A program made the position numbers and the translations under genes. From a virus, in the IMG/VR virus record IMGVR_UViG_3300044539_000111, positions 1-64,000 of that record: a stretch of 64,000 bases of DNA. The stretch is one strand, 5' to 3'. This document shows, one piece after another, positions 1 to 21,591 of this stretch (the first letter of the stretch is position 1; each line of letters begins with the position of its first letter). The notes beneath the pieces were generated by a model. The model was not told the DNA's origin. It searched no databases and saw only the letters and a program-made list of their open reading frames with translations.

Positions 1-917
1 TGTAATAGCTCAAGTGATTCTAATTGTTCAGCAGTCATCAAGTAACCATACTTATCTACAACATCTGCAATAGTAAGCATGTCAATCCATCCCGCCCAGT
101 TACCTTGAGAAATGTAATGTACATTTGGTGACTTATGGTAAAATGAAAGCGCAGGGTTTAATAATTCAATATTGTAATCATCTTCTAGCATTTTAAAATG
201 CCAAAACTCACTGTCTGTAATTAATGAATCTCTGAAAGCAATTTCTTCCATTTCATCCATTTTAAAACGGTTCACATCAATTGCATGTTGTTTTACCGCC
301 CATTTTTCAGCAAGTGTCTGATATTTTTTAGAATAAAAATCTTCAATCTCTGGAAGTTTTTTTAATGCTTCAGGATTTAATTGTTGTTGTGCTTCTTCTG
401 AGTTTGGATCTAATCCCATTTCAACCATTTTAGCAATAAGTTTTTGCTGAGCATACTCAACTAAAACTTTACTAATGGCTTCGGTTTTTTTATCCATGAC
501 TTCATTGTATGAATACTCATCAATAGCACGGTAATCTACTTTAGTATTTCTTTTTGCAAATTCAGATACAAGAGTGTTTACTAAATTAGGAATGATTGGA
601 TAAAACTTTAATTCCAATGCTTCATTTTGCCCTTCAGTAAGAGTTTCAAGCATCTCAGTCATTTCATTTTCTACATCCGGTAGATAATCTGTTTTATCAA
701 TTACACCTTTAGCAAGTTTGTAATTCTTCATTATGCGTCTGGCTTTAGAACCAATTTGCTTAATGCCTTGCCACTCTAACCAATCAATATTCCATTTTGA
801 CCACTCATCATCTTTTTCATCTGATGGTACAAATTGAATGGGTTGGGTAAAAACACCAAATCTATTTTTCTTGGTTTTCTTGCCCTTTTTTAAGTCTATT
901 GCATTTAATATTTCCAT
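1..917 (-). CDS. Portal protein (5' part, runs off window)
   Basis: Not in ORF track. ATG at 917 overlaps TerL stop (TAATG). Translates MEILNAIDLKKGKK...QPIQF...EKDDEWSKWNIDWLEWQG...LKFYPIIPNLVNTLVSEFAKR, typical of crAss-like portals that follow terL. Confidence 0.85.
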   Translation of the reverse strand, partial: MEILNAIDLKKGKKTKKNRFGVFTQPIQFVPSDEKDDEWSKWNIDWLEWQGIKQIGSKARRIMKNYKLAKGVIDKTDYLPDVENEMTEMLETLTEGQNEALELKFYPIIPNLVNTLVSEFAKRNTKVDYRAIDEYSYNEVMDKKTEAISKVLVEYAQQKLIAKMVEMGLDPNSEEAQQQLNPEALKKLPEIEDFYSKKYQTLAEKWAVKQHAIDVNRFKMDEMEEIAFRDSLITDSEFWHFKMLEDDYNIELLNPALSFYHKSPNVHYISQGNWAGWIDMLTIADVVDKYGYLMTAEQLESLELL

Positions 918-3142
918 TATCTAAAGTTTTTAAATGGATTACGCGGTTTCTTCATACTTAAAGATTCACTGCTTGATCCAAGATGTCTATAAGGACTCCT
1001 ATTTAATTTATACAAATTTTCTGACTTTTCCAAATGTTCTTCATTATCATATTCAACTCTTTTCTTCAAACCTCTGCTTGCTTCCTGTATTTTTACAAAT
1101 GTAATCAAAGCTCCCAAAGAAATTAATCTATCCACATTGACTCCTGGTTGGTAGTGTTCCATCTCAACCATAGCCATGTAATCAGGTATTCTGGATATAC
1201 CATAATGCTTCTTATAGATCTTCCCGTCTTCATCAGTTTCTACATCAAGCTCCTCTCGAAGGTACTCAATTAAGTAACTCAACATTACAGTTTTAAAAAT
1301 GGTAGAAACATTTCGCCATCCATATTGTTGGAATTGGGTTTTAGATTGCTGTACTTCTTTAGAAAAAACTATTTGAGAAGATGGTACTAAATACTTTTGC
1401 TTGCGCTTAAATTGCATGTATTGAATAAATAGAGGCACGTTGTTCTCTACTACAGTCCAAGCTTGATACCACTCAATGATTAACTCTAATCTTTCATGTG
1501 TTTTGTTAATGTCATCATACCTGCCGGTCCAAGCCGCTACAATTTTATCTCCTTCAATAAATGTTTCCACTTCACCATTAGCTAATACTCTTTGTACTTG
1601 TATTGGATTCTTGTAAACATGTATAGAACAAAGTGAATCAGAAGTTACTGTTTTACCTTCTGACACGGGATCGACTGATGCAAAGTAAGTGGTGCAAAAA
1701 TCCTTTTCTTCATCAGGTTCCTCCCATACTTGTATTGCACCAGATTTATCTTCTGCGCTTTTATCTGTAGGAAAAATAAGTATTGGCTTCTTGGTTGTTG
1801 GTGATGCAACAATCTCACCTTTGTTATCATAAGCTAAGTTGTAACAAGAGTAAGGATAATCACCTTCTTCAATATCGCGTTTGTGTGACTTAACCAATTC
1901 CAATGGAAATATGCTTTCACCTCTAAAGGCAAATGCTTCTTCCATATTAGTTGGTCGCTGAGAACAGCGAATCTGATATGTTTCCGGATCTAAATCTTTT
2001 TTCCACTGTTTTTTTAACTCAATCAAAGCTTCTAATGCTTCCTCTACTTTTGAATTACCAAACTCATCAATGTATGGAGGCATTGACCATTGTTCTGGAA
2101 TAAACAAACCTGTGGTAAGAACTGTACCTTTTGGATCAGCCCATTTATTTTTTACCTCATAGAATCCATTTCCTTTGGCTTTGTGCATGTATTTACGCAA
2201 AGGTTCGCACTGTTTCAAATCCCCTACGGTTCCAGATGCAATAAAATAACCAGTAGTAATTTCCCCAGCTTGTAGTGCAGGAAGCATGAACTCAAATGTT
2301 TTATCCATGGTTTTAGCAATTCCCGCTTCTTCATAGAAAAACAAAGTACAAAGTCCCCCTACACCGGCTGTATCTGATTGCTCAAATGACAATGCTTGAA
2401 GAACTCCTTTTCTACCTCTTTCGGTTTTTCTACCATTTTCAACATACTCAATTTTCTGTTGCCACTCACCAACTCCTCCTGGATTCATTGGTCTGTACCA
2501 TGCGGTATGTTGATTCAAGAAGTTTTTGTATTCATTGATCATTTTCCATGTACCATTTACACCGGTAACATACGCACTCAGCGAAGAACCAATTTTAAGT
2601 ACTGGTCCATATTCAAACCACAATACATTCACTAGTTTAGCTCCATGATAAAATGAAGATCCAAACTGCCTTTTCTTTAAGATGATTCCATGCAAATAAA
2701 ACAACTCTCCAATTGCTTCATAAAGGGACATGTGGTATTGCGCATCATGTATGTCTGGAAAATCTGTTTTTCTTTTTACCTTATCAATAATTGGTAAAAA
2801 ATTAATCCAGAAATAGTAATCACGCGGCAGGTAATACTTTTTATCACCTTTCCAAAACAAAACTCCTTTTCTGGATTTTAGTTTTTGGTCATCCCAATAA
2901 TCAATAAAGTCTTTAGTGCCATCTGCAGCATCACAAAAATAACCCGCTTTTTTAAACTTTAGTCCTTGTTTTTGAAATTCATATACTACTTCATCAAAGT
3001 CATACTGACCAGGTTCTTTAAAATAATCTGCTTCTAAAGTTGTAGCCATATCAAGCCTGGTTGGAAAACTATACGTTGTCCAAATGCCGTCATGCCACAA
3101 TGGTATGTCTTCATGAAATTGACCTAAGTCATCATTAATCAT
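917..3142 (-). CDS. terL: Terminase large subunit
   Basis: 741 aa; ILKKRQFGSS Walker-A-like, FFYEEAG Walker-B, ASVDPV nuclease motif, VVENN, NVDRL. Confidence 0.93.
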   Translation of the reverse strand: MINDDLGQFHEDIPLWHDGIWTTYSFPTRLDMATTLEADYFKEPGQYDFDEVVYEFQKQGLKFKKAGYFCDAADGTKDFIDYWDDQKLKSRKGVLFWKGDKKYYLPRDYYFWINFLPIIDKVKRKTDFPDIHDAQYHMSLYEAIGELFYLHGIILKKRQFGSSFYHGAKLVNVLWFEYGPVLKIGSSLSAYVTGVNGTWKMINEYKNFLNQHTAWYRPMNPGGVGEWQQKIEYVENGRKTERGRKGVLQALSFEQSDTAGVGGLCTLFFYEEAGIAKTMDKTFEFMLPALQAGEITTGYFIASGTVGDLKQCEPLRKYMHKAKGNGFYEVKNKWADPKGTVLTTGLFIPEQWSMPPYIDEFGNSKVEEALEALIELKKQWKKDLDPETYQIRCSQRPTNMEEAFAFRGESIFPLELVKSHKRDIEEGDYPYSCYNLAYDNKGEIVASPTTKKPILIFPTDKSAEDKSGAIQVWEEPDEEKDFCTTYFASVDPVSEGKTVTSDSLCSIHVYKNPIQVQRVLANGEVETFIEGDKIVAAWTGRYDDINKTHERLELIIEWYQAWTVVENNVPLFIQYMQFKRKQKYLVPSSQIVFSKEVQQSKTQFQQYGWRNVSTIFKTVMLSYLIEYLREELDVETDEDGKIYKKHYGISRIPDYMAMVEMEHYQPGVNVDRLISLGALITFVKIQEASRGLKKRVEYDNEEHLEKSENLYKLNRSPYRHLGSSSESLSMKKPRNPFKNFR

Positions 3143-3647
3143 CGTAACTTAGTTTTTGTCCGCCTCTGGCTCTTGATGATTGCTCTTCTTCCAAATCTTT
3201 AGCAACACCTTTAAATGATTTACGAATAGCATCAAAGTTTTTTGCTGCACTCACAATGGCTGTAATGTTTCCATCCCTGCCGTCTGTAATGGTTTGAGTG
3301 TTCATATAAAACGCCAACTTTTCTAACATGTTAGAAATACCATTGTATGCGCGTATTGTCGGAGTTTCATACATGTCTTTGCATCTATCCAGTGCCATAC
3401 GAATAAGTCTGTCTTCTGGATCAAAGTTAGGGTTTAAATCTGAAAGAATTTCATCTTGAACTTCATCTTGAGGTCTGTTAAAATAAGGATTCTCAGAACT
3501 CCTGCAACTCATGTAAAATAAGTAAGCATAAATTTCCAAATGATTATCCGGATACTCTTCCATTATCCTTCTCAAGAAAGGAATAGTTTGACAGTGTTCT
3601 GTTGGAACTACTTTGCCATTTATTGCATCAAATAGTTTAATGGCCAT
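3135..3647 (-). CDS. Conserved crAss-like protein upstream of terL (possible terminase small subunit)
   Basis: 170 aa, helical, overlaps terL start; function inferred from position only. Confidence 0.5.
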   Translation of the reverse strand: MAIKLFDAINGKVVPTEHCQTIPFLRRIMEEYPDNHLEIYAYLFYMSCRSSENPYFNRPQDEVQDEILSDLNPNFDPEDRLIRMALDRCKDMYETPTIRAYNGISNMLEKLAFYMNTQTITDGRDGNITAIVSAAKNFDAIRKSFKGVAKDLEEEQSSRARGGQKLSYDD

Positions 3648-4476
3648 GGTTTAATATTTTTTCTCTGTGTTCTTGAACATACTTGAACATGGCAATCACC
3701 TCTTTTTTCATGTAAGGTAATTCATACGGTGTTACATTTTTTACTAGCGGATCACCCATAGCATCTGTAGCAACAACAGGATAGCCATTCTTATCTAAGT
3801 GATCAATCTCAAATTCAATATGATCTAGTTGTATTTTACCAGGCTTCAAATTAAAGTTGTGCTTTAGCATGATGTACATGTATGTACTCAACTGTAAAGC
3901 GTATTCATTATAGTTGCACTCATCCAAATGAGAAAGTGGTCCAAGTAATTTTTTACTTTTACCTAGTCTGTCTGTAAATCCTTGAAGTTTAATTTCCTTG
4001 TTTGTTTTGTAGTCATAAACATCAATCAATTCATCTACAACTTCAATTCTATCTGCTTGTCCACAAACACCTGCTGATTTTAAATACACCAAATGCTCAG
4101 GATAAATACCATCGGCTAATTGTTGATCTGGTGCAAGTTTAACCAATCCATCCATCAAAGGATTTATGATTGTCAACTCTTTTCCTTTTCTTGTAATTGT
4201 GTTGCAAGCAAGAACATCTTTTTCTCTTTGATCATGATACCATGAACCTAAATTAACAGCTCTTTTGTTTTCAGATTCCCAAAGTTTAATAATTTCTTCA
4301 GGAGTCATTTTGTTATACTTGGGATTCTTTCCTTTAGAACAAGCATCAGCCATTTTGATTGTATCAAACGGCTCTTTAAAGTAATGAATCAACCTTGTCA
4401 CACTTATCCAATCAATTGGATCTCTTTCATCAATACTGATGTATTTGTGTTCATCGGCATAAAATTTTACACTCAT
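3637..4476 (-). CDS. PD-(D/E)XK (RecB/Cas4-like) nuclease
   Basis: ISVT, GSWYH, CGQADRI, DVYDYKTNK and YALQLSTY motifs. Confidence 0.85.
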   Translation of the reverse strand: MSVKFYADEHKYISIDERDPIDWISVTRLIHYFKEPFDTIKMADACSKGKNPKYNKMTPEEIIKLWESENKRAVNLGSWYHDQREKDVLACNTITRKGKELTIINPLMDGLVKLAPDQQLADGIYPEHLVYLKSAGVCGQADRIEVVDELIDVYDYKTNKEIKLQGFTDRLGKSKKLLGPLSHLDECNYNEYALQLSTYMYIMLKHNFNLKPGKIQLDHIEFEIDHLDKNGYPVVATDAMGDPLVKNVTPYELPYMKKEVIAMFKYVQEHREKILNHGH

Positions 4477-4790
4477 AGTTTTGCCTTTTGGTTTAAAAAT
4501 ATGATACCTGTGTTTCTTACTTCTTCATCTGCACTTTTAAGCAAAAGCTTCAACTTAAAGAAATCTTGAGATGAAATTATTTCACTTGCTAATAAATCTG
4601 CAGCAAGAACTATTGTTTCTAAATACTCTTTTTCTTCTGCAGAAATTGATACTGTTTTGTATGGATCATAAGGTATAGTACTAGCTTGACTTAATTGATT
4701 CCACAATCCCTCTTTAAGAGCAGTTCTAGAATCATTACCCATAATAGCATCTTGCATTTTGCTATTTAAATCTTTATTATTCTGAATCAT
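4473..4790 (-). CDS. Hypothetical protein with C-terminal LxSxDxE module
   Basis: ISSQDFFKLKLLLKSADEEVRNTGIIFL; overlapping start/stop with both neighbours. Confidence 0.7.
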   Translation of the reverse strand: MIQNNKDLNSKMQDAIMGNDSRTALKEGLWNQLSQASTIPYDPYKTVSISAEEKEYLETIVLAADLLASEIISSQDFFKLKLLLKSADEEVRNTGIIFLNQKAKL

Positions 4791-5094
4791 CTCCTAGTTT
4801 TTTTTGTAGTAAATAATTTTCTTCATGTGACAACACTGCATCCCATTTACCTTCTGGACAATCAGAACCAAGTGCTCTTAGTTTTAATCCCATACTGCAT
4901 CCGCAAGATCCACAACATGGGCCGGTTCCAGGAACTAAACATTTATCTCCTTCTTTGTCTACTATTGGACACTGTTCACAGATAGCCCATCTTTCTTTGG
5001 CAATTTCTTCAACATGTTCATTTTTGAAAATGTTATTCTTGATCCCCTCCAGGATTTGCCCTTTTGCTTTCCAAATTTTTATTACGCTTTTCAT
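4777..5094 (-). CDS. Cys-rich putative zinc-binding protein
   Basis: RWAICEQC...C...CCGSCGC...CPEGKW; likely start MKSVIK at 5094. Confidence 0.65.
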   Translation of the reverse strand: MKSVIKIWKAKGQILEGIKNNIFKNEHVEEIAKERWAICEQCPIVDKEGDKCLVPGTGPCCGSCGCSMGLKLRALGSDCPEGKWDAVLSHEENYLLQKKLGDDSE

Positions 5095-5428
5095 ACATTT
5101 CTTTGTAGTACTCATTACACATTTCTAATCCTTTGACTTTGCTATCCAGCAGTGTTTTAGAAAGATTGAATTTAATCACTTTTTTAAAGTCCTCTTGAGA
5201 ATTACTCTCCAATAATTTTTGCATCCTTTCAATATTCTTTTCAAGCTTTCTCCTGCTTAATCTAAGAGTACCTAATCCATGCAAAAAGATTGTAGCATTC
5301 TCTAAGTTTTCAATCTTTCTAGTTACTATAGAATAGTAAAACTCAACAACATCCCTTACCATTTCCTCTGGTAAGTTTAATTCTTGAGCTGTCTTTTTAA
5401 TTAGCTCTTTGCCCTTGGTCGGTTTCAA
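5033..5428 (-). CDS. HU/IHF-like DNA-binding protein
   Basis: KELIKKTAQELNL...VRDVVEFYY...IFLHGLGTL resembles the HU fold; IHF-like genes are typical of crAss-like phages. Confidence 0.7.
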   Translation of the reverse strand: MKPTKGKELIKKTAQELNLPEEMVRDVVEFYYSIVTRKIENLENATIFLHGLGTLRLSRRKLEKNIERMQKLLESNSQEDFKKVIKFNLSKTLLDSKVKGLEMCNEYYKEMYEKRNKNLESKRANPGGDQE

Positions 5429-5780
5429 GATGATAGACTTTTAAATTCAGTAATATAGTTCCTTCTGTCAATAACTCTAAACTTTTGTTTAATGAAACAA
5501 GTTTGTTTCCTAATCCACTTCTAGTTACCAAATCTTCTTTTACACACTTTGTAATAAAGTTTCGTGTAGTCTGAACATTGCCAAATATCTCTTCAGAAAT
5601 AACTTCATTGCAGAAATCTGACATATTCATTTCACCGTATAATCCCAATAAAGACAAACAATCTAATTGTGCCGGACTTAACCTGATCTTATTTATGAAG
5701 CAATGCATGTTTATCTGAAACTTAATTACTTCAATCAAAGACAGCGGCACTTGCTTGTTAACAACTAACGCCTTTGCCAT
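5397..5780 (-). CDS. Putative winged-helix DNA-binding protein
   Basis: 127 aa; LSPAQLDCL...VQTTRNFITKCVKEDLV wHTH-like pattern. Confidence 0.5.
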   Translation of the reverse strand: MAKALVVNKQVPLSLIEVIKFQINMHCFINKIRLSPAQLDCLSLLGLYGEMNMSDFCNEVISEEIFGNVQTTRNFITKCVKEDLVTRSGLGNKLVSLNKSLELLTEGTILLNLKVYHLETDQGQRAN

Positions 5781-5782
5781 GA

Positions 5783-6049
5783 TTACTCTTCTTTTGTTTC
5801 AGACTCGTTTGCTTCTTTTTCTTCCTCTTCAGCTGCATCTTGCATAGCTTGATTAATTTGCATCATCCTCATTGAATAATCAAATGCTTCAAACTGCGCT
5901 TTTTTAATGCGGGCTTTAAGTTCTTCTACAAGACATTGAGTAGCAAGAACCTTTTCTTGGCTCTTGTAATATGCAATTGTTTTTTCTTGCATAGCGCGTA
6001 TCTCTTGTGGAGTGTACTCGCGTTCTTCTTGGTTGGTTTGTTCTGACAT
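5783..6049 (-). CDS. Hypothetical coiled-coil protein
   Basis: 88-aa charged helical ORF in operon with upstream promoter motif. Confidence 0.65.
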   Translation of the reverse strand: MSEQTNQEEREYTPQEIRAMQEKTIAYYKSQEKVLATQCLVEELKARIKKAQFEAFDYSMRMMQINQAMQDAAEEEEKEANESETKEE

Positions 6050-6070
6050 AATATTTAATGTTTATTATGC

Positions 6071-6078
6071 CAAATATA
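6071..6078 (-). promoter_or_regulatory. Bacteroidota sigma-A type -7 element (TATATTTG)
   Basis: Matches TAnnTTTG about 20 nt upstream of ATG 6049. Similar elements at 11559-11566, 15029-15036, 15435-15442, 30276-30283 (minus) and 40396-40403 (plus). Confidence 0.6.
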
Positions 6079-6109
6079 ATAATAAATGTTTAACTATTTA
6101 ATGTTTAAT

Positions 6110-6138
6110 AAAAAAAGCACCTATTCCTAAGTGCTTTT
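6110..6138 (-). terminator. Intrinsic terminator
   Basis: AAAAGCAC/GTGCTTTT inverted repeat with A run, downstream of lysis operon. Confidence 0.6.
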
Positions 6139-6167
6139 AGCCAATGAAATAAAATTCAAAGGGGAGT

Positions 6168-6461
6168 TTATTTTTTTCTAGCATTGTTTCCTTTGCCATT
6201 TCTAGCGCGGTTTGTAGAAGCTTTCTCACTTACCAACTTTCCTTTTTTAGTATGTGATTTATCTTTGCCATCTCCATTGCCATAAGTTCCAGCTTTTCTA
6301 TTAGCGGCATTCAGTTCTTCTCTGTATTTGATGCGCGAAGGACTTGAATGATACTCTTTGTTGTATTCATTCTTTTTCTTACGCGCTTCAGGATTAGAAG
6401 CAAAATACTTTGCAGACTTACTGGTTCCAGTAGACTTACCTGCTAATGAGTTTCTAGCCAT
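6168..6461 (-). CDS. Small basic protein, possibly degenerate HNH-like
   Basis: K/R-rich; GDGKDKSH...NRARNG. Confidence 0.45.
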   Translation of the reverse strand: MARNSLAGKSTGTSKSAKYFASNPEARKKKNEYNKEYHSSPSRIKYREELNAANRKAGTYGNGDGKDKSHTKKGKLVSEKASTNRARNGKGNNARKK

Positions 6462-7140
6462 TCTTTAATGCTTTAAGCATTGCAATTAACTTTGGTTGTG
6501 GAGAAACATCAGATTTATCTTTACGGTATGAGTTGTGAGTGAAAACTCCATTCTCTCCTTTTAAAGCTCTAACTGATATACCCCAGATGTCTTCGTTGTA
6601 AGTCAAATCAATTCCATGGATTTTGCTCCAGTACACTAACAGCTGACGTACTGATTCAATCTGAGCATCTGTATATGCATGATAATATAGATGTCCTTTG
6701 TATGGCGCGCTTAATACACAAACTTGGTCAACAGAAACTTCTCTATCCACATAGTTGTAATACTTATCACCTACTTTATCTAATGGTCCCCAGTTACATA
6801 TCTCAATGCCTATAGCTATAGGATCAAGTGATTTGTATGCAACGCCTTTAGATCTAAAAACATCTTGTTTAAGACCTAAGTGATAACCCCATTTTTTAGA
6901 ACCAAATGCCTGACAGATTTCTCCATCAAAAGTATCTTTTGATAAACCTTTCCCAGAGATTACAATGCAAGTTGCAATTTTTCCTCTGTCATCTTTGTCC
7001 CACATCTTAATAGTTGCAGGTGCAGAAGAATTTCCAGCAGTGTGGTGCAAAACAATTTGAACCTTTTTAACTTCTTCATCAATGTATTGACCTGATGATA
7101 AAGGAACTTGCTTGATTTTTTTTAGATCTAACTCTCCCAT
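6454..7140 (-). CDS. Endolysin, N-acetylmuramoyl-L-alanine amidase
   Basis: IVLHHTAG, AIGIEICNWG, YTDAQI, FTHNS..KDKSDV zinc-amidase motifs. Confidence 0.9.
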   Translation of the reverse strand: MGELDLKKIKQVPLSSGQYIDEEVKKVQIVLHHTAGNSSAPATIKMWDKDDRGKIATCIVISGKGLSKDTFDGEICQAFGSKKWGYHLGLKQDVFRSKGVAYKSLDPIAIGIEICNWGPLDKVGDKYYNYVDREVSVDQVCVLSAPYKGHLYYHAYTDAQIESVRQLLVYWSKIHGIDLTYNEDIWGISVRALKGENGVFTHNSYRKDKSDVSPQPKLIAMLKALKNG

Positions 7141-7143
7141 TTT

Positions 7144-7437
7144 TTATTTGTTGAATTTCTTAACAAAAATCTTTGAGATAAGATTACCAATCTTTTTTAA
7201 GAATCCATTTGCAGCTTCTACTTCAACAGTAACTCCGTTCTCATCTTTTTTTACATGGACATCAAGTTTTTTTGAATCCAAATCAAAATCTGATCCGTCT
7301 GTTCCTTTTTCATACTTTACATCAACCTTTTCAGTATTGACTTCAGCTTTGAACTTACCTTCTTTTTTTTCTACATGAACATCTACCTTTTTGGTATCAA
7401 CATCCACTTTGAAATCTTCAACTTTTTTCTTTGCCAT
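7144..7437 (-). CDS. K/D/V-rich repeat protein in lysis cassette
   Basis: Three internal repeats like DVDTKKVDVHVEKK; amphipathic C-terminal helix. Confidence 0.6.
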   Translation of the reverse strand: MAKKKVEDFKVDVDTKKVDVHVEKKEGKFKAEVNTEKVDVKYEKGTDGSDFDLDSKKLDVHVKKDENGVTVEVEAANGFLKKIGNLISKIFVKKFNK

Positions 7438-7439
7438 GA

Positions 7440-7667
7440 TTACTTTGTTTCAGGGTTTTCAACTGTAAGTTGTGATAATGTTGCAGTTGCACTACCAAGT
7501 GCAATCAGATAACCCGCTCCAGTCAATATTGCCGCAGGTAGTGCTATAGGAGAAGCTAAAAGGATTCCGCCTAGTACTCCAGCTGCTATACCAATTCTTT
7601 GCATTTTCTTCCAAAATTTTGGTGTTTTTGCTTTCCATCTTTCTTTAATTGTTTTCTCTTCCATCAT
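7440..7667 (-). CDS. Small membrane protein (holin/antiholin-like)
   Basis: Basic N-terminus plus two hydrophobic segments. Confidence 0.6.
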   Translation of the reverse strand: MMEEKTIKERWKAKTPKFWKKMQRIGIAAGVLGGILLASPIALPAAILTGAGYLIALGSATATLSQLTVENPETK

Positions 7668-8190
7668 TTTTTACTTTAGGTTCATCTTTAATGTACTTTG
7701 ACAACTGTTTTAGTATTGGCACATATTCATTCCAACCAAGTCTTTTAAAGTTTTCTAAATTAGACCAAAACAAGTTTATCAGTACAAAGTTATAAAATCC
7801 ATAATGCAACCAAGAATAAATATTAAAATCCCAACTAAAAAAAGTTTTTACTGGAACATGAACAGCTAATGCATGGGAACATCCAATCATTATCATGTAA
7901 ATTAACAACTTTAACCAACCTTTTCCAAATAATTCTGAATCAAATGTTCTTTTCTCTTTTCTAGAGGCTCTGATTCCAGTAAACATTTCTAAGCCAAACA
8001 GCACAATTAAAACTATTCCTACAGGTAACTCTATTCCAAATATTGCATTAAAATAATAAGCAATAGTTGCTAGTATTGTACTAGCTCCAACGGCAAATCC
8101 TGCTAAGTTAGGATGAAAGGCACTATCTATAAAATGTGTTGTGTCTTTATATCCAGCACTCATTACTATTTTACAACAAATACCTTTCAT
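7645..8190 (-). CDS. Holin-like membrane protein
   Basis: Several TM segments; MFTGIRAS and WSNLENFKRLG resemble holin-4-type motifs; close to amidase. Confidence 0.7.
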   Translation of the reverse strand: MKGICCKIVMSAGYKDTTHFIDSAFHPNLAGFAVGASTILATIAYYFNAIFGIELPVGIVLIVLFGLEMFTGIRASRKEKRTFDSELFGKGWLKLLIYMIMIGCSHALAVHVPVKTFFSWDFNIYSWLHYGFYNFVLINLFWSNLENFKRLGWNEYVPILKQLSKYIKDEPKVKNDGRENN

Positions 8191-8348
8191 TTTATTCCAG
8201 CTTTTAGAGTTTGAAGTTCTTGGTACATTTCTAAAAGTTGTGTTTCTTTTTGAGCAATTAACTCTTCTTGAGTTGGTTGATCTACTTCAATAAACTCAAC
8301 TCTTACAAGTCCCGTTTCATCGTATATTTCATTTCTTACTTGTGCCAT
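8187..8348 (-). CDS. Small tail-fibre-associated protein
   Basis: Not in track; MAQVRNEIYDETGLVRVEFIEV...; ATGA overlap with holin start. Confidence 0.55.
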   Translation of the reverse strand: MAQVRNEIYDETGLVRVEFIEVDQPTQEELIAQKETQLLEMYQELQTLKAGIK

Positions 8349-8355
8349 GATTTTA

Positions 8356-9078
8356 TTATTTAGACATGAATATTGCAGGTGCTTGTTGAGTTTGATAAGA
8401 ATTAGGTGCTGCTACACTTGGTGCACCACTGGCGTATGTAAGACTAACTTGTAGCAAACATGTTAAAGGATTTCCAAACAAATTTCCTATTGGTAATAAT
8501 GCTGCATTACTTATTGCATTAAGTTGGATTGCAGCAACATTTACTTGTAAAGCTAACCAATATACAGTTCCTTGTGTAAAAGCAAAAGAAGAAACTACAG
8601 TTTTGCTACCAGATGTTGAACAATCTAAATCAACACTACTGTATAACAAATTGCCAGGTTGTCCATTAACTGAAGAATATACACAAATTCTAGCCAAACC
8701 TGTTGGTTGTGGAGTATTTACAGTAATAGCAAATTGTGTACAAGTAAAACTTACATTTGGTATGTAAGGGTAATATGTCATAGAATTTGTAGTAGCCCAA
8801 CTATTCATTGATGAACAATTTGTTCCAGCGTAGGTTGGCATTCCAAATAGCGATCCAAAAACAGGTGTTTGTAAACCTGTTGTAGTGCCGCCACCTCCAC
8901 CACTTGCAGAAAATATTTCTAATATTGCACCAGTTGAATCCTTAAATCTTACTAGCTTATCTGCTTTATTGTAGAAATAAGTAGAATTAGGAACTGATGC
9001 AAAATCTGCACTAGTGTCTGTTATGCTTTTATAATTTATTGCTCCTGTTGGATTTCCAATTGCTGTTACTACTGCCAT
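8356..9078 (-). CDS. Tail fibre/virion structural protein
   Basis: S/T/G-rich, poly-Gly linker, beta-sandwich-like C-terminus (GTVYWLA). Confidence 0.6.
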   Translation of the reverse strand: MAVVTAIGNPTGAINYKSITDTSADFASVPNSTYFYNKADKLVRFKDSTGAILEIFSASGGGGGTTTGLQTPVFGSLFGMPTYAGTNCSSMNSWATTNSMTYYPYIPNVSFTCTQFAITVNTPQPTGLARICVYSSVNGQPGNLLYSSVDLDCSTSGSKTVVSSFAFTQGTVYWLALQVNVAAIQLNAISNAALLPIGNLFGNPLTCLLQVSLTYASGAPSVAAPNSYQTQQAPAIFMSK

Positions 9079-15786: not shown

Positions 15787-16175
15787 AGACAAAAATACAA
15801 AATTTGGGTAATATAGAATTGGAGAGTATAATGATGGGTAAACTAGAAATATAATGTATGATGATGTGGGGAACATCCCTAGTCCTTTAGCCCCCCGTCA
15901 ATCAGCTGGAGGGTGCTACCCCCCATAAAAAAACAAGTCCAAAGAAAAATCACAACAGGATCCAAGAAAAAGTTCCAGGGGAGAGAGGTCTGTGCAGAGG
16001 AGAGCAGAGCCTGTGCTCGCAAGCTCGCACCACACCAGGACACGGAAGCACATGTCCTGACAAGCAGACACAGACACACCAGGAGTGGTTAGATGATGTA
16101 TGTACTCAACTAGAATGACCACCTCTTAATGTAAATTTAGCCCTTCGGTCATATAAACCCTTAAAAAAAATTCTT

Positions 16176-17177: not shown

Positions 17178-17498
17178 GGTGGGGACATTGTGTTTACTAT
17201 CACTCCCACCTCAAATGTATTCACAACAGCTCCCAATCATTCACTCAAACGGTGTGCTGCGCACGCTTTTTTTATCTTTCTCTCTTTGCTCACCGCGAGC
17301 AGCCTCATGCTTCGGCACTACGCGGTTCGCAACACACCAGTACTCAGCCTCAAATGTAAATTCACCCCTTCGGTGCTTTTTCCCCTTACGGGCTGTCTTA
17401 CTCTTCGTAGTTTGTTAAAGCATTGGTGTCTACACAGCCAACAGATAAATGTGTTATCCTTTTTTAAAACCGTGCGGGTATAAAACGCAAAATTTACC

Positions 17499-18167
17499 AT
17501 GGAAAATACTTCCACTTTTACCCAAGCAGAATTAGTTGAGAAAATCTTTTCTCAAAAACAAATCTGCAAAGACAACAAAATCTTTAAGAAAGATTTGCAA
17601 GCTATGGACGCTGATGCTCTTACAGCATTAGCCGAATTGCATTCAATCAATCTTGAAGATGCTCCTGCTGTCGCTTCTGTTGAGTTAGTTGCTAATGGTA
17701 TTACACCACGCACTGCTCTTAACGGTACTATTGTCTATACTATGGACTTAGAACTTGTTCACTCTGACGGTTATTCTTTCCACTTTGCCTTTGGCGATAA
17801 GAAAGTTGTCATTGCAGGCGACCTTGCTTTATCTGATTGCTTCGCTTCAGGTGCAATAAAGATTGGGGATATGATTCCATTCCACTACCACGGAGTTGAC
17901 TCATTCAAGCTGTTGTCTACAAACGGTTCTTATTTGGTTCCTAACAACAACCAAGAAAACCCTTCGCGTGGTACCATTGCTAAGTCATTCTGCGAACCAA
18001 TTCAGGCAATGCTTGCTTTGGAGAAACTTGACAAGGCTAAGGAAAACCTTGAAATGCTACGCATTGCAAAGGCTTCCAAGTTGAAAGTTAGGGACATTCG
18101 TAACCTTGACCGTGAAGACCGTGTTGCTGATGCTCGTGCAATGCTTGCTGAATTACGCAAGAGATAA
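17499..18167 (+). CDS. Stand-alone early hypothetical protein
   Basis: 222 aa with own structured leader and terminator. Confidence 0.8.
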   Translation: MENTSTFTQAELVEKIFSQKQICKDNKIFKKDLQAMDADALTALAELHSINLEDAPAVASVELVANGITPRTALNGTIVYTMDLELVHSDGYSFHFAFGDKKVVIAGDLALSDCFASGAIKIGDMIPFHYHGVDSFKLLSTNGSYLVPNNNQENPSRGTIAKSFCEPIQAMLALEKLDKAKENLEMLRIAKASKLKVRDIRNLDREDRVADARAMLAELRKR

Positions 18168-18171
18168 TAAG

Positions 18172-18213
18172 ATAACGCCTGTTGCTCTTCGGAGTGACAG
18201 GCATTATTTTTTT
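18172..18213 (+). terminator. Intrinsic terminator
   Basis: GCCTGTTGCTC-TTCG-GAGTGACAGGC followed by T run. Confidence 0.85.
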
Positions 18214-18216
18214 GTG

Positions 18217-18230
18217 GTTACTATCACCAC
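18217..18230 (+). promoter_or_regulatory. GTTACTATCA motif, candidate phage-specific promoter
   Basis: Exact 10-mer at 18217, 18626, 21438, 28091, 35356, 45866; one-mismatch copy at 17193; all on plus strand. Confidence 0.6.
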
Positions 18231-18316
18231 ACCCGCACGGTATCCACCGTGTGTAGGTTTGTGACTCACACCCTGAAAATCAGAGTGTTAAGATTACAGT
18301 AACCACACCCAAAAAA

Positions 18317-18598
18317 GCATTGTGTCGGCTCATTGAAACCTCTTCGGTTTCTGCCGCCTGGGCTTCTTCCCGATCAACTCTTATAAGGGCTTCGCCCTGC
18401 CGTTGGGCAACCCTTGCTCTCCGAGGGCTGAACCCAGGTTCAGACTCCTGGGGATTACTAGCCCATAGTATGCATGGTGTCGGCTAACAGGATCTTGCAG
18501 ATCCTACGCGCCTGGCTATACCTTGGCTCGCTGCCGCGGGCAACACTCCGTGGGCTGAAACTCTTCGTTTCAGACTTCCGCGAAATTAGTAGCCCACA
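18317..18598 (+). ncRNA. Tandem pair of structured non-coding elements (18317-18466 and 18472-18598)
   Basis: Shared sequence blocks separated by hairpins that differ in sequence but keep pairing; GC-rich relative to genome. Confidence 0.6.
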
Positions 18599-18680
18599 TT
18601 CACACCACTCCCAAAAAACTGGTAAGTTACTATCATCAGGAAGGGGAAGTGTCTAATTATTAATTAAATACTATCACAAA

Positions 18681-18881
18681 ATGTCACAAAACAAAACAGA
18701 TTACTCAGAAAACTTCATTGTGGAATGCACAATGACAAGCAGAGAATACTATGACTTTCGTCTGCTAGCACTAACACACCAAATTCAATTCCTAGTCAAA
18801 TGGGAAAAGACTAAGTGTATAGTAGTATGCGAAGCTCCATTTCTCGCTAAGTGCGGATACAGTGCAGGTGTAGACTTTTAA
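18681..18881 (+). CDS. Early hypothetical protein
   Basis: 66 aa, downstream of GTTACTATCA motif. Confidence 0.65.
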   Translation: MSQNKTDYSENFIVECTMTSREYYDFRLLALTHQIQFLVKWEKTKCIVVCEAPFLAKCGYSAGVDF

Positions 18882-20587: not shown

Positions 20588-20610
20588 TACTGTCTGCAAC
20601 CCAGATGGTA

Positions 20611-20682
20611 GGTATAGTAAGCTCAACTGGTAGAGCTGTAGCAACACTGCTATGTGTGTGGGTTCGATTCCCTCCTATACCG
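20611..20682 (+). tRNA. tRNA-like element/pseudo-tRNA, anticodon unassignable
   Basis: GGTATAG/CTATACC acceptor, GCTC-AACTGGTA-GAGC D arm, TTCGATT T loop; anticodon loop only 6 nt (AACACT); no CCA. Confidence 0.65.
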
Positions 20683-20775
20683 CTAACCCCTAAAATTAAT
20701 TCCCATGAAGGAAATAGTAATCACCGTATTGTTAATGGCATTGTGCTATTCACAGTACATTTTAAATCAAAAGAG

Positions 20776-21591
20776 ATGAAAGCATTTGAACCCGTAAAGA
20801 CCTTGAGTAAAAACAAGGCAACCATTGGTGATATATTCATCATTGAAGGTACAGAACGCACAGTTACTAATGTAACTACTCAGTATGTGTATTTGGATAA
20901 CAAGAAATACTACATAAAAAAAATGTTCAACAGTTGGATGCGTATTGCTAAAACTGTAGCAACAAGAGATATGCAGTCTGAAATGAAGAACCTTGCATCC
21001 AAGCACAGAGAAACGGAAACAATGATCATGCGCAAGGAAGCTAAGGCTATCTATGATGAGAAGTATCGGCAACCTGCAATCAATCGCATGGGTGTAGATA
21101 CAAGCTTAAAAATGTATATTGTTCTTACAGGTGTAGCAGATACCATCAAGTTCTATTTCTCACCTACATTTAAGTCAGACGCAGAAGACTTAGAACTTTC
21201 TTATAAATCTTTGCATGGTACTAAGTATTCAGCATTCGCATGGGGATACTACATACAATATGGTTCAGACATTGCATTGATTGGAATGAACTCTTACAAA
21301 GAAAGAAATGTTTCAGACAAGCGTAAAGATTTTGCAATGAACTGCTTGAACAAAGAAGTCATTAACAACACTAAAGTCAATGCACGCTTGTATAACAGCA
21401 TGTTTAACATGTTCAATGTCCAAGACAAGGAACGCAAGTTACTATCATCACCACAAGAATCCCCAAAAGAATCCAAACCAGTAGAACAAAAACATTGGTC
21501 AGGACTCAACGGAGAAATGGCTCAAGAAAGCGTAGACCAAGGTCTTAGTCAAATGCTAGATGACAATGACGATGACGGATTTCCATTTTAA
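20776..21591 (+). CDS. Early protein with SSB-like acidic tail
   Basis: Likely start MKAFEP; ends DDNDDDGFPF. Confidence 0.75.
   Translation: MKAFEPVKTLSKNKATIGDIFIIEGTERTVTNVTTQYVYLDNKKYYIKKMFNSWMRIAKTVATRDMQSEMKNLASKHRETETMIMRKEAKAIYDEKYRQPAINRMGVDTSLKMYIVLTGVADTIKFYFSPTFKSDAEDLELSYKSLHGTKYSAFAWGYYIQYGSDIALIGMNSYKERNVSDKRKDFAMNCLNKEVINNTKVNARLYNSMFNMFNVQDKERKLLSSPQESPKESKPVEQKHWSGLNGEMAQESVDQGLSQMLDDNDDDGFPF

Follow-up and report, generated by a model that had tools for sequence, protein, structure and literature searches.

What is the short GC-rich tandem repeat that occupies part of a gap between two genes of a crAss-like phage from fresh water, and which function, if any, could explain its conservation? 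The DNA analysed here, called the window in the following, comprises bases 1 to 64,000 (64,000 nt) of the 114.2-kb linear virus record IMGVR_UViG_3300044539_000111. Giant polymerase ORFs of the crAss-like phage type are present in it, and the sequencing runs that contain the window originate from lake water and freshwater sediment. The repeat, an array of two units, lies inside a 513-nt intergenic region between ORF 17499-18167 and ORF 18681-18881; both neighbours are co-directional with it, i.e. the array sits between genes within one plus-strand gene block. Its GC content is 56% versus 34% for the window. The initial annotation had located it near the genome end, which proved wrong, since the array lies 18.3 kb into the linear record; it is close to the divergence point of two gene arms and to the minimum of the cumulative GC skew. 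The array and its immediate surroundings are composed of the following features.

18177 to 18213, plus strand: terminator-like hairpin with a T run, closing ORF 17499-18167, the array being just downstream
18267 to 18316, plus strand: leader, recovered by a repeat search, a partial duplicate of the 5' flank of a unit (CACACCC..GTGT) with a degenerate copy of the promoter-like motif
18317 to 18465, plus strand: unit 1, 149 nt, matched by two covariance models (97.5 bits for R1, 63.9 bits for R2)
Unit 1, 5' half: 5' block 18317-18330, hairpin hp1 18335-18351, CGCCT 18355-18359, hairpin hp3 18386-18398
Unit 1, continued: GCCG 18399-18402, GGGCAAC 18405-18411, 3' domain 18419-18468
18466 to 18471, plus strand: AU-rich linker TAGTAT between the units
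18472 to 18596, plus strand: unit 2, 125 nt, recognised by shared blocks, covariance-model match and covariation
Unit 2, 5' half: hp1 18489-18505, CGCCT 18509-18513, GCCG 18533-18536, GGGCAAC 18538-18544
18606 to 18618, plus strand: CACTCCCAAAAAA, direct repeat of the 13 nt preceding unit 1 (18304-18316), 12 of 13 positions identical

The initial annotation had described tandem units with ordered blocks, all of which were found where it had placed them. They start in units 1 and 2, respectively, at 18317 and 18472 (GCAT(T/G)GTGTCGGCT), 18355 and 18509 (CGCCTGG), 18397 and 18531 (CTGCCG), 18405 and 18538 (GGGCAAC), 18419 and 18546 (CTCCG(A/T)GGGCTGAA), 18439 and 18569 (TTCAGACT), and 18454 and 18585 (ATTA(C/G)TAGCCCA). 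Seven blocks of 6-14 nt each in identical order exclude a chance origin of this likeness. The hairpins inserted into the units are perfect and mutually unrelated in sequence (GAAACC/GGTTTC at 18335-18351; AGGATCT/AGATCCT at 18489-18505). The terminator-like hairpin upstream is kept in the related record L120 with compensatory differences, and one RNA contig described below (run X21) reads through it; the leader stretch is absent from L118. The 13-nt direct repeat that flanks the array can be written as CAC(A/T)CCCAAAAAA (18304-18316 and 18606-18618), and a related sequence, CACACCCTGAAAA, is found at 18267.

Two ORFs can be drawn across the array. The first, 18320-18487, is frameshifted in L118; the second, 18474-18656, shows amino-acid-changing differences only and is absent from L120. 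The array is, judged from these comparisons, non-coding and free of coding constraint. The window contains two further GC-rich non-coding stretches (15975-16150 and 17251-17400), each of which terminates in ACACACCAG and a common AATGTAAATT..CCCTTCGG motif; both are candidates for further structured leaders or promoters in this region.

Homologues of the array were found in six lineages, named W (window and L121), B (L118 and L119), C (L120 and L122), D (L171), E (L174 and L175) and F (L178 and L179). Searches with the upstream 222-aa protein and strict RNA patterns led to the close relatives L118/L119 and L121 and to the more distant L120/L122, which carry a single, shorter unit, while lineages D, E and F were found via the downstream 66-aa ORF and a pattern of the 3' half. 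In every lineage there is one locus per record with one or two units (103-149 nt long and diverged from one another), directly 5' of the 66-aa ORF, and covariance models of the 3' half match at this single place only within the phage records. In lineages D, E and F the upstream genes are different, the downstream 66-aa ORF is the same and the element stands between them. Because the upstream gene is replaced outright between lineages, the array marks the edge of a variable gene slot. In the DNA run X10, which contains a related phage, many differences fall at 18134-18163 (the 3' end of ORF 17499-18167) and none is listed across 18220-18446.

Outside of these records, comparison of the DNA and of both flanking proteins with the GenBank phage collection revealed no relative, a core-pattern scan of 185,579 species genomes (one per prokaryote species) gave 28 matches, all of them chance, and a metagenome scan for the array returned near-duplicates only. 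An initial, looser DNA pattern was discarded, as its 117 matches were mostly chance. As far as these searches indicate, the array is limited to one small crAss-like phage clade from fresh water. The units of the window and of L119 share 97-99% identity, compared to 89-91% for the flanking coding DNA. The module content differs rapidly among close relatives. A junction motif, made of the 3' end of a unit, the linker and the next 5' block, occurs without unit bodies in lineages F and E: on the minus strand of L178 the sequence TTAC-AGTCCCA-NNG-GTGTT is repeated three times in tandem with ~22-nt spacing ahead of the single unit and twice after it, spanning ~100 nt before and 60 nt after, and in L175 partial copies follow E unit 1 (1768-1811).

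Behind the array comes the same small gene in each lineage.

18681 to 18881, plus strand: conserved 66-aa ORF, immediately after the array in all six lineages

Its family comprises only 18 protein clusters with the invariant motifs REYYxFRL and EAPFL. A beta-alpha-beta-beta-alpha fold is predicted for the protein (pLDDT 72.5), and comparison of this model with the PDB gave non-significant matches only (E >= 0.1), some of them KH domains. PHROGs and Pfam assigned no family to any of ten neighbouring ORFs, the 66-aa ORF included. Further downstream, an Rfam tRNA model matches at 20611-20682 (plus strand, 43 bits), as it does in L175 (3874-3945, 41 bits); this match overlaps the start of ORF 20605-21591, and ARAGORN called no tRNA there.

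Modelling was restricted to the 3' half, because MAFFT misaligned whole units. The conserved core is a 3' domain of ~50-75 nt that occurs in every unit. It reads CU, then the closing helix P-I (CCGNGGG/CCCNNGG) and, from the next base and thus stacked directly upon P-I, hairpin P-II (CUGAAC/GUUCAG), whose loop can pair with a segment 3-6 bases downstream (S2); the joining strands ACU and AUUAnU are invariant. In the window, these elements are located as follows.

18421 to 18427 with 18462 to 18468, plus strand: P-I of unit 1
18428 to 18433 with 18438 to 18443, plus strand: P-II of unit 1
18433 to 18438, plus strand: P-II loop of unit 1, complementary to 18447-18452 (S2), pseudoknot or alternative hairpin
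Unit 2, 3' part: P-I core 18550-18554 with 18593-18597, P-II 18555-18561 with 18567-18573

In the alignment of 3' domains (11 rows) 87% of the cells of 14 pairs are paired, and this falls to 20-50% when the partners are slid by 1-3 columns. Both partners change in three pairs (GC/AU/GU, CG/UA and CG/AU), and the covariation score was reached by none of 500 shuffles, on the basis of ~7 distinct but mutually related sequences. The individual changes are found in different lineages. P-II exchanges C-G for U-A in three lineages and CUGAA/UUCAG for CUUAA/UUAAG in D unit 2. P-I changes from GGGC/GCCC to AGGC/GCCU in E unit 2, and the closing GGGCT/AGCCC helix of the initial annotation is likewise backed by compensatory changes in related phages. 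S2 changes from CCCAGG/CCUGGG to CCAAGG/CCUUAG in E unit 1, which amounts to one compensated pair (C-G to A-U) and one mismatch. Since P-II and S2 overlap, the domain forms either an H-type pseudoknot or two alternative states. In the 5' half, hp1 shows the change from AGGAUCU/AGAUCCU to AGGAACU/AGUUCCU and is entirely different between units 1 and 2 with perfect pairing in both, which bears out the earlier notion of interchangeable hairpins, and hp3 changes from AGGGC/GCCCU to AGGAC/GUCCU. Compensatory changes are hence on hand in support of the predicted helices P-I, P-II, hp1 and hp3.

The strand can be deduced as well. In 8 of the 11 rows the P-I pair 34-82 is G-U, and L120 has additional G-U pairs. 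Read from the minus strand they would turn into C-A mismatches, which assigns the fold to the plus strand, as initially read. The folding energy is unremarkable (z ~ -2 on both strands); hence, the support for structure is comparative and not thermodynamic. Minimum-free-energy folds vary with the unit and the boundaries chosen and leave the 5' half unsettled, where many alternative long-range pairings are ambiguous because GGGC and GCCY motifs recur. One of them, a helix between the 5' block and CCGNG, is a possibility: it can be drawn in unit 2 (CAUGG/CCGUG) and L120 (CUUGG/CCGAG), and the variant U18475C in the run X21 turns a G-U into a G-C pair there. As a general feature this helix was rejected, since neither unit 1 nor D unit 1 can form it.

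The 5' half is, from the comparison of unit types, a swappable kit of optional modules (hp1, hp3 and GCCG/GGGCAAC). Five unit types contain hairpin hp1, which C and D-1 lack; hp3 occurs in unit 1, C and D-1. In place of GCCG(N)GGGCAAC, E-1 has a small hairpin; F lacks the segment, and D-2 and E-2 carry altered versions of it. The loss of whole 5' blocks speaks against an invariable core for catalysis or ligand binding in this half. The pseudoknot that had been suggested from CGGC/GCCG and GCCUG/YGGGC can be drawn in the window units. The F unit and E unit 1 lack its segments, the C and D-1 units do without CGGC, and in E unit 2 CGGC is altered with no compensation. As the strands never covary and the pairing is missing or broken in 5 of 8 unit types, it is not a defining feature of the element. 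Taken together, the array is, on the comparative evidence, a conserved and lineage-specific structured RNA with a defined core and swappable accessories.

Transcripts of the locus were searched for among assembled contigs of RNA libraries, which can include DNA and whose depth is a crude measure. Two sediment metatranscriptomes from two studies (X22 and X23) contain short contigs on the element only, with at least 99% identity, covering 18303-18443, 18303-18372 and 18472-18621; the last of these, from X23, shows no differences from the unit 2 region. Neither library yielded a contig on either flanking ORF, though uncovered parts alone prove nothing. In a freshwater metatranscriptome (X21) an 855-nt contig of a variant phage (depth 76) extends from the upstream ORF across the element as far as 18665, contigs of the downstream ORF have a depth of 3-8, and the ~10-fold drop lies just before that ORF. 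Thus, contigs confined to or enriched on the element come from three runs of three studies, with the reservation that they are assembled contigs and that DNA carry-over is possible. They are a hint at a stable, abundant RNA.

How such an RNA may be started is touched by several promoter-like motifs around the array.

18217 to 18229, plus strand: GTTACTATCACCA motif, promoter-like, upstream of the array in lineages W, B and C only
18255 to 18262: TAGGTTTG, ~55 nt upstream of the array
18626 to 18638, plus strand: second GTTACTATCATCA motif, after the array in all six lineages

The initial annotation had named TAGGTTTG as promoter-like; its position was right, and it is not conserved, being missing from L118 and L120. 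On its plus strand the window has seven copies of the 9-mer TTACTATCA (extended: GTTACTATCA[C/T]C), on its minus strand none. The copies (17194, 18218, 18627, 21439, 28092, 35357 and 45867) lie within the plus-strand gene block, some of them inside ORFs, and a shorter ACTATCAC stands 4 nt ahead of the ATG at 18681. The sequence TTACTATCA/GTTACTATCA is a candidate phage promoter or start-region motif. The contigs from X22 and X23 start 0 and 4 nt past the GTTACTATCACCA motif in a B-type variant; contig ends are no proof of transcript ends, and these starts are a weak hint at the role of the motif.

Comparison with known RNAs supports the earlier view that the element belongs to no described family. 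At the gathering threshold, the tRNA match mentioned above was the sole Rfam 15 hit in the window. At E <= 10 the region 18100-18750 gave noise only (at most 20 bits, far below gathering), and at E <= 1 there was no match on the elements of L171, L175, L120 and L118. A type III toxin-antitoxin locus of the ToxI kind consists of 34-45 nt tandem repeats followed by the gene of a ToxN-type endoribonuclease of ~170 aa. This candidate was rejected for units of 103-149 nt that have diverged and a next gene of 66 aa without Pfam or PHROG family.

With the repeat, its conservation, the supported helices, their strand, the freedom from coding constraint and the presence in RNA libraries established, its role has to be weighed. 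In our ranking a protein-binding stable ncRNA comes first, followed by a cis-acting stabiliser or processing module and, far behind, by a ribozyme, a selfish repeat, a riboswitch and a DNA signal. The best reading, to which we would give an even chance, is a stable modular ncRNA made from the plus strand, whose conserved unpaired strands bind protein as a decoy or scaffold. By this reading, the units have undergone duplication, truncation and recombination among phages that are close relatives. The array would be transcribed together with or just after the upstream gene, and its compact GC-rich units would persist as abundant, nuclease-resistant RNA, possibly after cutting at the AU-rich linkers. 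The conserved unpaired strands would then offer a binding surface for a host or phage protein.

The closest parallel in kind comes from the Cellulophaga crAss-like phage phi14:2. There, early lncRNAs are made from two long intergenic regions (g004-g006), exceed most mRNAs in abundance and persist through infection (Drobysheva et al., bioRxiv 10.1101/2020.03.07.982082). Both loci are non-coding, lie between small crAss-like phage genes and are co-directional with their neighbours, and the abundance of the phi14:2 lncRNAs may have a parallel here, where RNA-library contigs fall preferentially on the element. The regions in phi14:2 differ in that they amount to ~1.7 kb in total and are not GC-rich, compared to 280 nt of GC-rich tandem units. 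The covariance model R1 found only noise in bases 1-9000 of NC_021806 (phi14:2), and the neighbouring proteins are not similar. Without sequence or model similarity the relation is one of kind, not of family, and is used as an analogy only; by this analogy, the array RNA may be the counterpart of the persistent early lncRNAs of phi14:2.

A cis-acting module for RNA stability or processing is possible, at a clearly lower probability. The units would then serve as roadblocks to nucleases or as processing sites, by which the early cistrons on either side are protected or kept apart, and the stable fragments would be by-products. Tandem xrRNAs of flaviviruses, REP elements and the intergenic RNase III sites of the T7 early region are comparable cases. 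The constant synteny with the downstream ORF fits such a cis role equally well, and so do the tandem units, the intergenic position inside a co-directional gene block, the lack of a promoter-like motif between the upstream gene and the array in lineages D, E and F, and the X21 contig that joins the upstream ORF to the element before the ~10-fold depth drop. The 3' domain, with its closing stem and loop-to-downstream pairing, likewise resembles the xrRNAs of flavivirus 3' UTRs, which are also duplicated compact units with a junction and fragments that appear to outlast flanking RNA. However, the xrRNA models and the rest of Rfam give no match, the host is bacterial with different nucleases, and a ring-like fold and nuclease stalling would be putative here. 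The hairpins of T7 and REP stabilisers share with the array a conserved structured RNA between early polycistronic genes, but the T7 elements are several dispersed single irregular hairpins, whereas the array has multi-helix units with invariant unpaired strands at one locus per genome, which also sets it apart from REP elements. Moreover, a canonical terminator already closes the upstream gene, and the invariant unpaired strands are conserved beyond the need of a simple roadblock.

That the units are selfish or recombination-driven structured repeats, i.e. a small insertion element or a decaying tandem duplication without function for the phage, appears rather improbable. It would account for the 13-nt direct repeat that brackets the array, the partial duplicates in the leader, the body-less junction motifs of lineages F and E and the fast module change between close relatives. 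But a mobile or decaying sequence is hard to reconcile with exactly one locus per genome at a constant place, with no copies of the core pattern in the 185,579 species genomes, with units better conserved than the flanking genes and with helices kept by compensatory changes.

A ribozyme reading, in which every unit would cleave itself and might be related to the HDV type in rewired form, is similarly improbable. HDV-like ribozymes adopt a nested double pseudoknot, in which a P1 of 6-7 bp continues into P1.1, P3 abuts the 3' strand of P1, P2 joins J1/2 to the 3' tail and all members keep the core strands and a catalytic C in J4/2. They have reportedly been found in phages, and they share with the units, as do the phage theta ribozymes among them, the short core strings GCCG(N1-3)GGGCAAC and a helix that runs straight into a GG able to pair an upstream CC. 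In the window, CGGC/GCCG runs into GG that could pair the CC of CGCCU, as P1 passes into P1.1 in HDV, and unit 2 has CUCGCUG..GCCG.GGGCAAC; the L120 unit carries GCCGGCUGGGCAAC, in which 14 of 14 nt are identical to the HDV genomic ribozyme (sequence from PMC5718131). The window units differ in offering only a P1-like helix of 4-6 bp plus the possible CC/GG pairing. Threading by hand on the HDV fold yielded no P2, a placement of P3 that is inconsistent between the units and no catalytic C, there is no conserved C after P-I, and the HDV-family covariance model gave no match even at E = 10. The short GC-rich motifs presumably resemble parts of the ZTP riboswitch, the glycine riboswitch and xrRNA cores just as well, likenesses that were rejected as they lack Rfam backing, which makes the HDV likeness cheap. 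As the sequence cannot be threaded on the HDV fold, as no HDV model matches it, and as the family can do without the string (the F unit and E unit 1 lack it, D unit 2 and E unit 2 have altered forms), we regard the likeness as a low-odds lead.

A tandem riboswitch or ligand-sensing leader controlling the downstream operon is very unlikely. Two similar tandem units, conserved junction nucleotides and constant synteny with the downstream ORF would suit it, but after unit 2 there is no expression platform, neither a terminator nor a start-site-sequestering helix, a promoter-like motif separates the array from the ORF, the putative aptamer can do without whole blocks, and the element is confined to one phage clade without an Rfam aptamer match. 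Just as remote is a DNA-level signal, be it an origin of replication whose repeats would be iteron-like or a set of ssDNA hairpins for a phage polymerase, the latter close to the ssDNA structure initially offered as an alternative: the proximity to the gene-arm divergence and the skew minimum, the iteron-like 22-nt tandem junction repeats of lineage F and the similar folding z-scores of both strands speak for it, but the G-U pair of P-I and the further G-U pairs fit the plus strand only, RNA-library contigs are confined to the element, and this is GC-rich without an AT-rich unwinding region.

If we return to the stable modular ncRNA, a bolder version of it can be put forward, although we consider it doubtful: the 3' domain could be a new phage RNA fold, a bacterial analogue of xrRNAs or a new small ribozyme, which would yield unit-length RNA in large amounts, and this RNA would manipulate a host factor during infection. 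Among known phages, the crAss-like ones rank with the most abundant. To our knowledge, phi14:2 is the only crAss-like model that has been studied, and we know of nobody who could state the role of its ncRNAs. The locus described here may be a compact version of the phi14:2-type RNA, with units of 125-150 nt and a core of ~60 nt, in which natural deletion variants mark the dispensable modules. Compact units, deletion variants and the hints from environmental RNA make the role of a phage RNA approachable by simple in vitro assays. The core would represent a new RNA class if it turned out to resist nucleases by its fold, to be a ribozyme or to serve as a protein decoy.
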